Assembly: GCA_038045265.1 (NCBI GenBank) | Contig: JBBSYL010000015.1 | Location: 21,780-53,779, forward strand | DNA length: 32,000 nt | DNA from: Nanobdellota archaeon | GTDB taxonomy: Archaea > Nanobdellota > Nanobdellia > Pacearchaeales > GW2011-AR1 | Reading direction: 5' to 3' | Shown here: piece by piece, positions 21,669-32,000 of the stretch | Layout of the letters: every line of letters starts with the position of its first letter | Numbering within the stretch: position 1 is the first letter of the stretch | Made by a program: the position numbers and the translations under genes | Notes under the pieces: generated by a model | Told to the model about the DNA's origin: nothing | Databases searched by the model: none | Seen by the model: the letters and a program-made list of their open reading frames with translations, nothing else

Positions 21669-22712
21669 TTAATTATTATTTATTAATTCAACATATTTTG
21701 CAGGGTTTTCCATATACGCATGATAAACTGCTCGGGCACCATTTTTTTGAGCCCATTTTATTGCTAAGTGCAAATCTTTGTAATTTCCTTTGCCCACATT
21801 TTTACTCCCGTAATATATCCTATTTATAACTTCTTTTGCTTTTTCAGGCGAAAATCCATATCTTTTTTTCAAAATATCTATTCCAAGTAAATAGGACATT
21901 GACTCGGAAAAAGACTCCCTAGCAACAGATGCATTTTCTTCACCTGCTTTTTCAGCATGTTCAATACTTTTTGCAACAGCATTGATAGGGATAATTTCAG
22001 AGAAGGGGGTCGTAACCAGAGATTCTCCTGCACAAACTACTATAAACCTTCTTCCGTATGTGCTCCCCACACCCATTCCGCCAGATAGGTGTACTGTTCT
22101 ACCCATCATAATATATCTTGAAGGATTGTTTTCTCCGTTTACCTTCATTCTTTGAACTCTAAAATAACTTTCAGCAATGAAACCTCGGTTTGCATACGCT
22201 TCTTCAAAATTATCTCCCTTTTTTACGGGAGTCCAGTTTATATTTACTGGCTCAAATTCAGGAACTTCTTCTAAAAGAAATTCTTCAGCAGATTTGCAGT
22301 GATTAAGACATACAGATATTAATCTTTTTTCTAATGGAATCCCATAAATCTGCAAACTTGGAACAACTTTATATTTATCTCTTGCATCAAATTTCCACTT
22401 TCTAAGAGCTTGCTGTATTGCTGACTTAGAATCCTTTTCTAATCCTGCCCATTCTTCCATGCCTGGCAAGATGTCTTTTCTTTCACCAAGAGGAACATAT
22501 AACCTTACAACATCATCATATCCAACTTTTTCCAGGCTTTCTTTTATATTAACAAAGCTTAAGGGTTGTTCCGCCCTATTTTGATAAATTTCTAATCCTG
22601 CCCATGAAAGTGCACACAAACCACCAGCCAAACCAAAACCTCTTCTCAAAAATTTTCTTCTAGTTACATTGGTGCCTTGCTTAACTTTCTGAGCTCTTCT
22701 GTGTTTATTCAT
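21669..22712 (-). CDS. hypothetical exported protein with a twin-arginine (Tat) signal
   Basis: The N-terminus TRRKFLRRGFGLAGGLCALSWAG matches the S/T-R-R-x-F-L-K type. I do not recognise the mature domain. Confidence 0.65.
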   Translation of the reverse strand: MNKHRRAQKVKQGTNVTRRKFLRRGFGLAGGLCALSWAGLEIYQNRAEQPLSFVNIKESLEKVGYDDVVRLYVPLGERKDILPGMEEWAGLEKDSKSAIQQALRKWKFDARDKYKVVPSLQIYGIPLEKRLISVCLNHCKSAEEFLLEEVPEFEPVNINWTPVKKGDNFEEAYANRGFIAESYFRVQRMKVNGENNPSRYIMMGRTVHLSGGMGVGSTYGRRFIVVCAGESLVTTPFSEIIPINAVAKSIEHAEKAGEENASVARESFSESMSYLLGIDILKKRYGFSPEKAKEVINRIYYGSKNVGKGNYKDLHLAIKWAQKNGARAVYHAYMENPAKYVELINNN

Positions 22713-27438: not shown

Positions 27439-29409
27439 ATGTCCCAGCAACCTTTAGAAGTTTTGGTAGTAAATAGAACAGTCGGAGAGGATCTCCTAGA
27501 AACAGTAAGCAATAATGTTTGTGACGGTCCATTGCATGCAGTAGCAGAACTTGTTGCTAATTCTTGGGATGCCGATGCACATTTAGTTGAGATAGAAATA
27601 GACAAGCCGGGAAATAGAATTTTGATAAAAGATGATGGTTCAGGAATGGACAGAGCAGGGATTGATGCATTTTACAGAACTGGAGATAGCCCAAAGAAAG
27701 TTGAAAAAACTTCCCCCAGTGGAAGACCAAGATTGGGCAGATATGGAATTGCCGCCTTTGCAACAAAAGCTCTAGCTAACGTCTGTGAATTAACTACAAT
27801 AAGAGATAGAAGTAGATTCCATTGCAGAGAAGAATTTGGAGAATCACAATTAATAGGAAAGTCATTAGAAGTTTCCGTTTTCAAAGCTCCAGAAAGAGAA
27901 CACGGAACGGAGATTTTACTTACTAATTTAAAAGTTGCAGATTATGCAGAATTTAATCAATTTGAATTAAGAAGTTATCTTGCTTCCCATTTTCATCAGA
28001 TAAGAGCAGAAAATAATTTTGTTGTTATTGTAAACGGAGAGTCGGTAAAATCAAGAGTAATAGAAGGAGCAGTCAGATTTTCAGTTGATACAGCGGGCGA
28101 ACACACTGGACCAATTAAAGGCACGATATATTTGACAGGAAGAAGAACAAAGGATGCAGGAGTGCATATTAGGGTAGATGGTAGAGAAATAGGAGACTCA
28201 AAGAGGCTTATTAATTTAGAATATATAAAGCGTTCAACCGCAGGAAGAGTCATTGTAGAAGTTCAAGCAGACGATATGCGCCAGTACATTACCTCAAGAA
28301 GAGACGGGTTTATTCCTGGAAAAGCGCTGGACGAATTAAAAAGATTAATCAGAAAAGAATTAATAGAAGTCAATAGGTATGCTGTCCAAGGTGCGACAGC
28401 GACTAAATCAAGGCACTTGAGAGGAAAGAGAGATAAGGTTCTTACAAATGTAAAAGCTCACTTTAAGTCTAGGCAAGTCCCAGAAATTGCAGAAGTGTCT
28501 TTAATATTTGAATCAGAAAATAAACAAGAAGTTCCATCGCATCTTCCAGCACTTTATGATGAAAAGTCAAGAAGAGTAGTATTAAATCCAAATTATGCAA
28601 CCTTAGATACTGATAAAGCTCAAAATGAACTTTCTTTAAAGCTTGGAGTAGTTGATGCTGTTGCAACCGCCATTGCAGAATTTAGAACAAGGGGTTCAGG
28701 TTTAGGGCAATTAGAAAGATTCCTAAAACATAAAGCTTTGCTATTAGCACAAGTCGCACCAAGACATAAAAAAGAAGAAAAAGGAAGCGAAATATTTTCA
28801 AATGCACATTACGAACTTAAGACTCTTGCCAGTTTATCAGGCCACTCAATCCCCCATCTTAGACACGCTGTAAGCGGAGGATTGCTTTCAGTTACCCAAA
28901 GCGGAGAAGTTATGGGCATAGCCTTTAAGGAAATGATCAGAAGGGTTGGTGGTTTAATCACTCTTTATCAATTAATAGAAGAAAACGTACCCATGAAAGA
29001 TCAAGCAGAGCAATTAAGACACGGGCAAAGATTCACAAAAGTATTATCTTTAATGGGTGATGAAACAGTTACTCCATTCTTTCATAATCTTACTACTAAT
29101 GGTAGTCCCTGCTATTTTGCAGAACCATCATGCGCTAAAGAATTAGCAGATTTAATGGCAGGCACAGACCTTAGAAAAATAAGAGATTCAGAATTGCCAG
29201 GTATAATGAAGGCCCATAAAGAGCAGTATTTTAGTCTTGGAGATATGGCAGAAAGACTTAAGATGCTTAAAGGAGACGTTGCGGGCGTATTAAATTATGT
29301 AGAATCAAAAGGCCTAAAAATTGATCAGAGAGAAAGAGGAAGAGGAATTCAGATAAATTACGCAGATTTCATATCTGCTTTACAGCATAAAAGAAAAGCA
29401 GAGTTTTAA
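27439..29409 (+). CDS. GHKL-superfamily ATPase (HATPase_c_3 / MORC-Hsp90-like Bergerat fold) with a long C-terminal extension
   Basis: The N box is ELVANSWDA (27547-27573). The G1 box is IKDDGSGM (27631-27648). The G2-like box is GRYGIAAFA. A GTEILL motif follows. The C-terminal about 400 aa are helical or wHTH-like and I cannot assign them. Confidence 0.8.
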   Translation: MSQQPLEVLVVNRTVGEDLLETVSNNVCDGPLHAVAELVANSWDADAHLVEIEIDKPGNRILIKDDGSGMDRAGIDAFYRTGDSPKKVEKTSPSGRPRLGRYGIAAFATKALANVCELTTIRDRSRFHCREEFGESQLIGKSLEVSVFKAPEREHGTEILLTNLKVADYAEFNQFELRSYLASHFHQIRAENNFVVIVNGESVKSRVIEGAVRFSVDTAGEHTGPIKGTIYLTGRRTKDAGVHIRVDGREIGDSKRLINLEYIKRSTAGRVIVEVQADDMRQYITSRRDGFIPGKALDELKRLIRKELIEVNRYAVQGATATKSRHLRGKRDKVLTNVKAHFKSRQVPEIAEVSLIFESENKQEVPSHLPALYDEKSRRVVLNPNYATLDTDKAQNELSLKLGVVDAVATAIAEFRTRGSGLGQLERFLKHKALLLAQVAPRHKKEEKGSEIFSNAHYELKTLASLSGHSIPHLRHAVSGGLLSVTQSGEVMGIAFKEMIRRVGGLITLYQLIEENVPMKDQAEQLRHGQRFTKVLSLMGDETVTPFFHNLTTNGSPCYFAEPSCAKELADLMAGTDLRKIRDSELPGIMKAHKEQYFSLGDMAERLKMLKGDVAGVLNYVESKGLKIDQRERGRGIQINYADFISALQHKRKAEF

Positions 29410-30046: not shown

Positions 30047-30250
30047 ATGGCTGAATACAATTTAATAATAGAAAAAGACGAAGAAGGATGGTTTGTAGGT
30101 AGCATACCTGAATTGCCGGGTTGTTATACGCAAGCAAAAACAATACCTCAATTATTGGAAAGAATAAAGGAAGCAATAGAAGTTTATTTAGAAGGAGAGA
30201 AAAATATTCCCTTGATAAAGTTCATAGGTATTAGAAAAATAGAGGCGTAA
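30047..30250 (+). CDS. hicB: HicB-family antitoxin (UPF0150-type, N-terminal domain only)
   Basis: YNLIIEKDEEGWFVGSIPELPGCYTQAKTIPQLLERIKEAIEVYLEG is the canonical HicB/UPF0150 fold signature. Its stop overlaps the hicA start (TAATG). Confidence 0.85.
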   Translation: MAEYNLIIEKDEEGWFVGSIPELPGCYTQAKTIPQLLERIKEAIEVYLEGEKNIPLIKFIGIRKIEA

Positions 30251-30474
30251 TGGCGAAATTACCAAAAGTTTCTGGTAAAGAATTGTGTAGCATTTTAGAA
30301 AAGATTGGTTTTATAAAAATCTACGGAAAGGGAAGTCATGTAAAATTTAAGCATCCAGATGGAAGAAGGACAGTAGTACCTATACATGGAAATGAAGACA
30401 TTGGTCCAGGACTTCTTCTGGCTATATTAAGGCAAATTGGATTATCAAGAGAAGAATTTGAGAAGTTGTTATGA
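30250..30474 (+). CDS. hicA: HicA-family mRNA interferase toxin
   Basis: VSGKELCSILEKIGFIKIYGKGSHVKFKHPDGRRTVVPIHGNEDIGPGLLLAILRQIGLS is the canonical HicA (YcfA) sequence, including the catalytic His. Confidence 0.9.
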   Translation: MAKLPKVSGKELCSILEKIGFIKIYGKGSHVKFKHPDGRRTVVPIHGNEDIGPGLLLAILRQIGLSREEFEKLL

Positions 30475-30711
30475 TTTAAATCAAATAGAAAGATACGTAA
30501 ATGTCCATAAATTAGGATTTAAGTCTGTAAAATGGGACAGAATATCTCAAATGTCTTTCTTTAGAAACATGTTAGATTATTATGGAGAGAGCATACCTAT
30601 TGATTTCTACAACAAAAACAAAGATGACTTTGAAAGGATAATTGATATTCTGATAAAACTGACAAAGTAGTGATATTATATTAACTATACAATAGTAACA
30701 CAATAGAAAGA

Positions 30712-30719
30712 TTTATAAA
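30712..30719 (+). promoter_or_regulatory. TATA box (GAAAGATTTATAAAC context) for the DGR target gene
   Basis: There are 21 nt between the box and ATG 30741. Confidence 0.5.
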
Positions 30720-30740
30720 CGCACATAAATAATAAAGACT

Positions 30741-31577
30741 ATGCAAAATAAAGTAGAAAACCAAAGAATTGAAGGAACAAGTCTGTATATTTTTAACAAG
30801 GACGTTAAAACTGGAGATTTTACCTATTCAAGACCTATTAGTATGGATGAAGCAAAAGCAGTTGCAAGTAAAGTAGATGGATTAAACGTTGCAGATAATG
30901 GTTCATTGATTTATATGAATACATTAAGGGGAATAAGAGCAAACAGAGAATTAATGGCTCAAACTCAAGGAAATGTTTGGCTTCCAACAATTCAAGAAGG
31001 ATTTGTATTACATGATGCAAAACTTTTGCCCTCAAACGAATTAATGGATTTTGGAATAGCTCTTTACAACGTAGAAAATCCAGATAAGCAAATTGCAGGA
31101 AAATTAATAGAATGTGCAAGACAAAAAGGTTATGCAGTTCCAATATTGGCTTCATTTAAATCATTAGATTTAGAGCAAGGTGGAGAAAGATACGGAGTTA
31201 CACCTGTTTTTGTTTCTAAAGAAGGATTAATAACAGGACAAGATGCAGTAAAACTTTTAGAGAGATTTAATTTTAGAGGAAATTCAGGCGTTTGCAGGTT
31301 GGGCCGCAGCTACGGGGTTTGGGTTGCGGACTGGGACGTTAGCCTTGACGCGGACGGTGTCTGTCGGGTGGGGCGAGTTTCTGCCGTAGGCACCGCGAAA
31401 AATTTAATTGAGCTTGCTGAAAACGAAGTAAGAACAAAATATGATTCTAACAATGCAGTCACAAGAAAAGATATTGTTTCTTTGGAAAGCAAGATTGCAA
31501 CATTACAAAGCCAATTAACACAATCAGAAGCTGACAGACAAAAAAGTGTTGAATCTATAAAACAATTTCTTGCATAA
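30741..31577 (+). CDS. DGR target (variable) protein, 278 aa, with no signal peptide and the VR about 65 aa before the C-terminus
   Basis: The ORF contains the VR (residues about 183-211, ...GVCRLGRSYGVWVADWDVSLDADGVCRVG...). A predicted helical/coiled tail follows (NLIELAENEVRTKY...LQSQLTQSEADRQKSVESIKQFLA). Confidence 0.8.
   Translation: MQNKVENQRIEGTSLYIFNKDVKTGDFTYSRPISMDEAKAVASKVDGLNVADNGSLIYMNTLRGIRANRELMAQTQGNVWLPTIQEGFVLHDAKLLPSNELMDFGIALYNVENPDKQIAGKLIECARQKGYAVPILASFKSLDLEQGGERYGVTPVFVSKEGLITGQDAVKLLERFNFRGNSGVCRLGRSYGVWVADWDVSLDADGVCRVGRVSAVGTAKNLIELAENEVRTKYDSNNAVTRKDIVSLESKIATLQSQLTQSEADRQKSVESIKQFLA
31288..31371 (+). repeat. DGR variable region (VR)
   Basis: VR codons: GTT TGC AGG TTG GGC CGC AGC TAC GGG GTT TGG GTT GCG GAC TGG GAC GTT AGC CTT --- GAC GCG GAC GGT GTC TGT CGG GTG G. 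The patch is strikingly GC-rich in an AT-rich genome. Weaker similarity to the TR flank continues to about 31390 (CTGCCGTAGG versus CTGCTAGG). Confidence 0.85.
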
Positions 31578-31772
31578 TTTTAAAAGCAATTACTTTCTTA
31601 TAAGAGTCCTAGCCACATAAACAATGGCTGGGCCACACGTCAATTAATAGTGCTTTCTCTTACGAGAAAGCCATAAAATACAGTTGCAAAATATAGTAAG
31701 CTATGAAATACCTTTATGGATTGAGCTGAATTATTAAGCTACAGTGGAACTTTGATTAATTGGCTAATTTTA

Positions 31773-31859
31773 GCGTTTGCAGGTTGAACCGCAACAACGG
31801 CAATTGGAATGCGAACTGGAACGATAACCTTGATAACGCGAACGATAACTGTCGAATGG
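31773..31859 (+). repeat. DGR template region (TR)
   Basis: TR codons in the VR frame: GTT TGC AGG TTG AAC CGC AAC AAC GGC AAT TGG AAT GCG AAC TGG AAC GAT AAC CTT GAT AAC GCG AAC GAT AAC TGT CGA ATG G. That is 9 AAC and 2 AAT codons. The TR is non-coding and lies between the target gene and the RT. Confidence 0.85.
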
Positions 31860-31881
31860 CTCAGCCTGCTAGGAATTTACT

Positions 31882-32000
31882 ATGAAATCATACAACCATC
31901 TTTACAATCATATAATTTCATTTGAAAACTTAATTCTTGCTTGGAAAAAAGCAAGAAAGAATAAAACAAAAAAGAATTATGTAATTGAGTTTGAAAAATA
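31882..32000 (+). CDS. DGR-type reverse transcriptase, N-terminal 39 codons only (partial, runs off the window)
   Basis: MKSYNHLYNHIISFENLILAWKKARKNKTKKNYVIEFEK matches the conserved N-terminus of DGR and group-II-like RTs (L..I.S.ENL..A...A.KGK......EF). The catalytic motifs lie outside the window. Confidence 0.75.
   Translation, partial: MKSYNHLYNHIISFENLILAWKKARKNKTKKNYVIEFEK

Follow-up and report, generated by a model that had tools for sequence, protein, structure and literature searches.

A retroelement-diversified gene of a Nanobdellota archaeon that carries its homing signals inside its reading frame

Introduction

What becomes of a protein when the segment that a retroelement rewrites lies within its reading frame and not at its end, so that the signals directing the rewriting must themselves be translated? 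The question is raised by a locus of a Nanobdellota archaeon (Pacearchaeales, GW2011-AR1; assembly GCA_038045265.1), on contig JBBSYL010000015.1, of which positions 21,780 to 53,779 of the forward strand were analysed (32,000 nucleotides, here called the window). The gene of interest codes for a protein of 278 amino acids and is the target of a diversity-generating retroelement (DGR), in which a variable region (VR) of the target is rewritten from a template region (TR) with the help of a reverse transcriptase (RT). A preliminary description, made from the letters of the window alone, had seen in this target a non-canonical, cytoplasmic protein with a cysteine-bracketed VR and a helical tail, placed in a defence-like setting. 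The source genome (861 kb, 33% GC, 37 contigs, 89% complete; the contig of the window is C15 in what follows) codes altogether for five DGR RTs and six targets.

A genuine pair of variable and template regions

The VR and the TR are a real pair, and the locus, in which target, TR and RT follow one another, is a genuine DGR. The two regions differ by 23 substitutions, 22 of which lie at adenines of the TR (the last one is a C>G change), and the VR is 3 nt shorter. This pattern, almost confined to adenines, bears out the preliminary description, which had seen a hypervariable DGR target here. The TR, translated, reads SVCRLNRNNGNWNANWNDNLDNANDNCRM, and some 2e16 protein variants are possible. 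The VR is also set apart by its composition, 65.5% GC against 32% in the remainder of the coding sequence, and each of the six VRs of the genome finds its best match in its own adjacent TR. A second pair that differs in length is present on contig C13, where the VR (C13:8020-8137) shows 9 gap positions against its TR; length changes of this kind may be common in these elements.

The 195-nt spacer between the target gene and the TR holds an RT-16 RNA (Rfam RF03019). A full-length copy of this motif stands immediately 5' of the TR in all five cassettes that the genome holds. The RT gene begins 20 nt 3' of the TR, and a search of the genome, 89% complete as it is, gave no Avd homologue. With this layout of target, RT-16 RNA, TR and RT, and no Avd, the open reading frame (ORF) is probably the variable protein of a DGR of the type found in Nanoarchaeota and other DPANN archaea. 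The coordinates of the features are collected in Table 1.

Table 1. Features of the DGR locus and of its surroundings (positions in the window)
Feature	Position	Strand	Evidence or remark
GHKL ATPase	27439-29409		upstream of target
HicB/HicA	30047-30474		upstream of target
125-bp upstream region (likely promoter or leader)	30603..30727	+	93% identical to C15:55977-56100
DGR variable-protein (target) gene, 278 aa	30741..31577	+	ORF; homologues; AlphaFold2 model with pLDDT 90.1, pTM 0.81
Variable region (VR), aa 183-211	31288..31371	+	mismatches at TR adenines; GC island; hypervariable columns
IMH-like GC-rich end of VR, TGTCGGGTGGGGCGAG	31362..31377	+	codes for invariant CRVGR strand; differs from TR counterpart
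Homing hairpin within ORF, TGCC-GTA-GGCA	31382..31392	+	codes for S-A-V-G-T; hairpin at same spot in all six targets
C-terminal helical tail, aa 219-278	31395..31574	+	single helix 219-277 in AlphaFold2 model, pLDDT 76-91
RT-16 RNA (Rfam RF03019)	31608..31772	+	abuts TR; full-length match, 92.5 bits, E 2.5e-15
Template region (TR)	31773..31859	+	29 adenines, 11 AAY codons
IMH* at 3' end of TR, TGTCGAATGGCTCAG	31850..31864	+	counterpart of TGTCGGGTGGGGCGAG
DGR reverse transcriptase gene, 5' end	31882..32000	+	runs past window; translation MKSYNHLYNHIISFENLILAWKKARK...

Homing signals read as protein

A DGR target is recognized by a sequence for the initiation of mutagenic homing (IMH), its counterpart IMH* in the template and an inverted repeat downstream of the VR, and both the IMH/IMH* pair and the inverted repeat are present here. 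In the system of Paul 2015 (PMC4372165), the IMH reads TGGGGT and the IMH* TGGAAT. The same work described the DUSEL4 DGRs of Nanoarchaeota, with TGGGG in the IMH and hairpins with a trinucleotide GRA loop within the target gene (Paul 2015; PMC4372165). The hairpin of the window likewise lies inside the ORF, but its loop is GTA and its stem has 4 bp. In the five other targets of the genome the loop is GAA, as in CTGGC-GAA-GCCAG, which codes for SGEAS. One target of the genome ends right after its VR, and there the hairpin stands just 3' of the stop codon.

That a DNA signal is translated leaves its trace in the protein family. Among 80 members, the pair formed by residues 215 and 217 is G-A in 36 and A-G in 32, any other pair being found at most twice. 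This swap matches a change of codons from GGC...GCC to GCC...GGC, that is, a compensatory change in the DNA stem seen in the protein, and the codon of the loop specifies glutamate in most members, consistent with GAA. Because the swap mirrors the compensation within the stem, the conserved peptide xGEAx/xAEGx must be seen as imposed by the homing signal. With its internal VR, the target reads its IMH as an invariant strand, CRVGRV, and its hairpin with a 3-nt loop as SAVGT, before the frame runs on into the tail.

A family of targets in DPANN archaea

Twenty-two close homologues come from metagenome-assembled genomes (MAGs) named 'Nanoarchaeota archaeon', and the closest ones overall also include sequences of Woesearchaeota and Pacearchaeota MAGs, which marks the host as a DPANN archaeon. 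The family is found in DPANN archaea only, where it comprises at least 89 clusters at an identity level of 50%, with representatives almost all of 250-300 amino acids. Among the other targets of the genome, the one on contig C30 is clearly a paralogue (E 8e-60), and the two on contig C36 are distant members. In sampled genomes of the same class, members of this family are the commonest ORF directly upstream of this clade of RTs.

Aligning the 80 members brings out a conserved framework (G183, V184, R186, L187, R189, G192, W194, A196, W198, L202, R209, V210 and V213), and the columns that alternate with it, rich in D, G, Y, N, S and V, fall precisely on the AAY and GAT codons of the TR, which means that DGRs write the family as a whole. 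A Woesearchaeota MAG makes the same point in another way. There, a single TR beside an intact RT (L088, G338:C47) matches three family members located on other contigs (L034, L035 and L038), and the VRs of these remote targets differ from it by A>N changes only (21/21, 22/22 and 17/17). This is therefore a genuine family of DGR targets, and members that have no adjacent RT can be targets in trans.

The alignment also disposes of a disulfide that would bracket the VR. The two VCR tripeptides noticed in the preliminary description are there, but as a meaningful bracket they do not hold: Cys185 occurs in 16 of the 80 members, with R in its place in most members, Cys208 occurs in 35, with G in half of the family, and both are found together in 3 members only. 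The cysteines are incidental; their codons, TGC and TGT, are simply adenine-free codons of this TR.

Taken together with the signals described above, the following course of events is proposed. Reverse transcription of the TR with adenine-specific errors would yield a cDNA that replaces codons 183-211, randomizing about 14 alternate positions on a framework of beta-hairpin, loop and strand, G-V-x-R-L-x-R-x-x-G-x-W-x-A-x-W...L...C-R-V. The positions counted as variable are 188, 190, 191, 193, 195, 197, 199-201, 203, 205-207 and 210. W194, A196 and W198 would stay invariant and face the core, with the variable residues pointing outward, and up to about 2e16 variants could be displayed in this way. 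The protein would then continue past the homing signals into a conserved amphipathic helical tail of some 60 residues.

The tail and the lack of export signals

After the VR, 67 residues follow up to the end of the ORF, with a single long helix predicted for 59 of them, and across the family this part has mostly 32-69 residues where it is measurable. The tail is, in its predicted structure, an amphipathic helix, with a conserved 3-4-3-4 hydrophobic stripe at 245-259 that amounts to about two conserved heptads (I245, L248, I252, L255 and L259). Its overall periodicity is 3.6 rather than 3.5. The amphipathic coiled-coil of about 65 residues suggested in the preliminary description stands as far as length, predicted helix and hydrophobic stripe are concerned, and those two heptads may point to a coiled coil. 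Self-association is plausible on this model, and the role of the tail would probably be either that or the docking of a partner.

The absence of a signal peptide and of a transmembrane segment, also put forward from the start, holds well. The highest Kyte-Doolittle average over 19 residues in the target is 0.67, and none of the 86 family members examined has a signal peptide, a transmembrane segment or a lipobox. Nor could another start codon reveal one, as had been envisaged: a stop codon four codons 5' of the target ATG rules out an alternative upstream start.

Likeness to known systems

The closest likeness in architecture is with AvpA (PDB 5IOO) and the DUSEL4 elements. Like the window target, their proteins belong to archaea, have no signal peptide and consist of one globular domain of some 210 residues with an internal VR near residues 181-210, followed by a helical C-terminal extension (46-67 residues). 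In both cases the IMH codes for the invariant last strand, and a hairpin with a trinucleotide loop lies inside the ORF. By contrast, no sequence or profile similarity to AvpA is detectable in the window target, which lacks the motifs GxxVVVYAH, HPxxxPFxG and RFxGV; the order of secondary structure elements differs, as the window target starts with three N-terminal strands; its tail is unrelated to the AvpA-type tail; and its hairpin loop is GTA, not the GRA of DUSEL4. With Mtd of the Bordetella phage BPP-1 and with TvpA it has in common a TR rich in AAY codons, the alternation of invariant aromatic and variable residues on beta strands, a [W/R]LPxxxE motif and a VR that ends in an invariant, IMH-encoded strand. 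In those two proteins, however, the VR is at the extreme C-terminus, the hairpin is intergenic and an FGE-type signature is present; in the window target VR and hairpin are both inside the ORF and the signature is absent. Mtd is, moreover, a trimeric phage tail protein that needs Avd, whereas no Avd was found for the window cassette and an RT-16 RNA flanks its TR.

Proteins of Nanoarchaeota/DPANN DGRs have been described with an internal VR, a hairpin in the ORF and a helical extension of about 46 residues, as soluble monomers (PMC4372165; PMC5006420), and AvpA was purified in that form (PMC5006420). The target is thus non-canonical when set against the textbook case of bacteria and phages, but its layout is the published norm for its own kind. 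An internal VR, a helical tail and the lack of an export signal are already known from nanoarchaeal DGRs; only the unmatched fold is new.

The state of the cassette

In the assembly, the local RT loses its frame within an (AG)11 repeat (C15 ~54236-54257), about 440 nt beyond the end of the window and just before the GMPLGN motif. All five RT genes of the genome (on C15, C34, C30, C36 and C13) have a simple repeat at this one site, (AG)10-11, G8 or G12, and four of them, the local one and three others with (AG)n or G12, are out of frame there; the RT of C13 is in frame. Among 48 RT genes of this genome and of its relatives, the approximately 30 that have no repeat are all in frame, and 12 of the 17 that have one are out of frame. 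To judge from these sequences, the repeat site looks like a slippage-prone on/off switch.

The cassette also belongs to a tandem duplication. A segment of about 2.6 kb, which takes in RT-16, TR and RT together with the last 391 codons of elongation factor 2 (EF-2), shares 84% identity with the cassette that follows on contig C34 (C15:53410-56135 and C34:1-3440, C34 overlapping the end of C15 by 55 nt). The full EF-2, of archaeal type and 735 amino acids long, is on C34, and the duplicated copy has a truncated fragment. The target genes of the two cassettes are unrelated; the 125-bp upstream region is common to both, its second copy (C15:55977-56100) lying directly 5' of the start of the second target ('MSGIEYS...').

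Degraded RTs beside intact targets seem to be frequent. In the Pacearchaeota UBA73 (L040), the RT next to a family member has an in-frame deletion of about 80 residues that removes the region from GMPLGN to YxDD. At another locus (L037), a remnant of 43 amino acids is all that is left of the RT.

Weighing the alternatives

Most probably the target acts as a soluble protein that binds ligands, its globular domain (aa 1-217) being a lectin-like scaffold that has diverged strongly. The AlphaFold2 model, built with a 20-sequence alignment, has a mixed alpha/beta globular part at residues 3-217, in which the VR makes up a beta-hairpin (184-190, 193-197) that leads through a loop (198-207) into a closing strand (208-217). 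A lectin-like core is favoured because the elements that follow one another from residue 79 onward (strand, helix, strand, helix, strands, beta-hairpin and final strand) come in an order compatible with C-type lectin topology, because the [W/R]LPxxxE motif is present and because invariant aromatics alternate with variable residues on strands that end in the IMH-encoded one. Among weak Foldseek matches, the C-type lectin domain is also the only recurring ligand-binding fold (NKR-P1A at rank 4 with the full model, DC-SIGNR at rank 13 with residues 70-222). A whole set of results weighs against this preference. Foldseek returns nothing significant for the full model (best E 0.41 in PDB and 0.28 in BFVD), and the AvpA structure 5IOO is absent from its top 50 matches. 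Hidden Markov model (HMM) searches of PDB that start from profiles of 20 and 80 sequences or from four paralogues retrieve no AvpA, Mtd, TvpA or FGE. Alignment of profiles by hhalign yields 0.4% against Mtd, with only WLPTIQEG aligned to KRLPNYNEF, 0.05-0.1% against seven FGE-sulfatase domains of Nanoarchaeota, and 1-3% (P 0.02-0.05) against an AvpA-like alignment, collinear but weak. A further family, L087, was tried as a bridge and rejected, as its link to AvpA is via the tail only and its link to the target family reaches 0.75%. The N-terminal 70 residues, finally, must belong to the fold, unlike what is seen in a simple lectin domain, because a model of residues 70-222 alone (predicted local distance difference test, pLDDT, of 72) loses confidence at the last strand; this poorer model, which makes a less than clean query, has no significant Foldseek match in PDB either. 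Pfam, run on the protein, its five paralogues and the 80 members at E values up to 10, showed nothing relevant, NCBIfam and PHROGs gave no domain, and the target has no GGSW/GFR motif. The preliminary description was right on the latter. Neither Pfam, PDB HMMs, hhalign nor Foldseek shows an FGE or C-type lectin signature. The positive control, a true homologue of AvpA from a related genome, matches 5IOO at 8.6e-59. The family is therefore neither AvpA-like nor FGE-like by any test applied. The VR might then be displayed on a fold other than the C-type lectin one, a further scaffold tolerating DGR hypermutation: a confident model (pLDDT 90) that has no neighbour in PDB or BFVD, the lack of HMM or profile signal to FGE, Mtd and AvpA, and a last strand modelled confidently only with the 70 N-terminal residues all point that way. 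We nevertheless hold this to be rather unlikely, and somewhat less likely still its extension, namely a non-lectin scaffold for the DGR-written residues whose conserved helical tail would multimerize the protein inside the cell of a DPANN symbiont. A diverged lectin-like core appears likelier than a new scaffold. As for tails, the AvpA-like and L087 families are unrelated in their globular parts but homologous in the tail at the C-terminus, P-S/T-L/F-E-E-V-L..SK..VPE....FE (hhalign 63%, E 7e-5), from which that of the window family differs; the post-VR tail may be an exchangeable module.

Other readings concern the place and the fate of the protein rather than its fold. It could be an adhesin, secreted or held at the surface and exported by a path that needs no classical signal, with the tail as a stalk or anchor in contact with the host cell of the symbiont. 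DGR targets are generally binders of ligands or cell surfaces, and DPANN archaea depend on cell contact, which would suit such a role. One in symbiosis has indeed been proposed for AvpA-like proteins (Handa 2016; PMC5006420), but most surface-located cellular DGR targets carry export signals (Roux 2021), and here all 86 members lack a signal peptide, a transmembrane segment and a lipobox, so that we consider an adhesin improbable. Far less credible is a role inside the cell as the hypervariable sensor of a defence island, at work with HicAB and the GHKL ATPase. These genes are physically adjacent, as the preliminary description had rightly seen, the target has no export signals, and PADLOC gives a single match, of 13.9 bits, on the helical tail. 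Yet that match is limited to a low-complexity helix, and 11 related loci, searched in flanks of up to 4 kb, show no homologue of HicA, HicB or GHKL, and neither do the contigs that hold the four other DGR cassettes of the genome; because of this lack of conservation the defence island was rejected, and the link between the target and its toxin-antitoxin and GHKL neighbours is a local coincidence. There remains the fate of the cassette, whose present activity is doubtful, a point that also counts against the reading preferred above. The RT is frameshifted, the VR lacks 3 nt that the TR has and shows one non-adenine mismatch, C>G, and the hairpin is a weaker one; together, these features suggest, at the level of sequence, an element that is currently off or a drifting duplicate. 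In the extreme case the cassette would be a decaying copy, left by the tandem duplication that includes the truncated EF-2 fragment, its VR frozen and its protein a paralogue of fixed sequence. We regard this as doubtful, though not to be dismissed lightly: the RT frames are intact on either side of the repeat and come back into register with one added repeat unit, about two-thirds of the relatives that carry a repeat at this site are likewise out of frame there, as a reversible switch predicts, 'SAVG' (GTA-loop) hairpins occur in about 16 of the 80 family members, and the RT in frame on contig C13 is at hand.

What the family may teach

The exchange of G-E-A for A-E-G shows a homing hairpin in DNA that dictates a conserved peptide. 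Coding by the hairpin explains both why VRs are usually C-terminal and what comes out when a VR is internal; the converse argument, why VRs are mostly C-terminal, was made before (Roux 2021). Eight of nine nanoarchaeal target types are still of unknown fold (Handa 2016; PMC5006420). With a confident model and a clear map of framework and variable positions, the present family is a good candidate for the determination of a structure. To our knowledge, all the DGR variable proteins solved so far have a C-type lectin fold. A solved structure of this family would extend that rule or break it.
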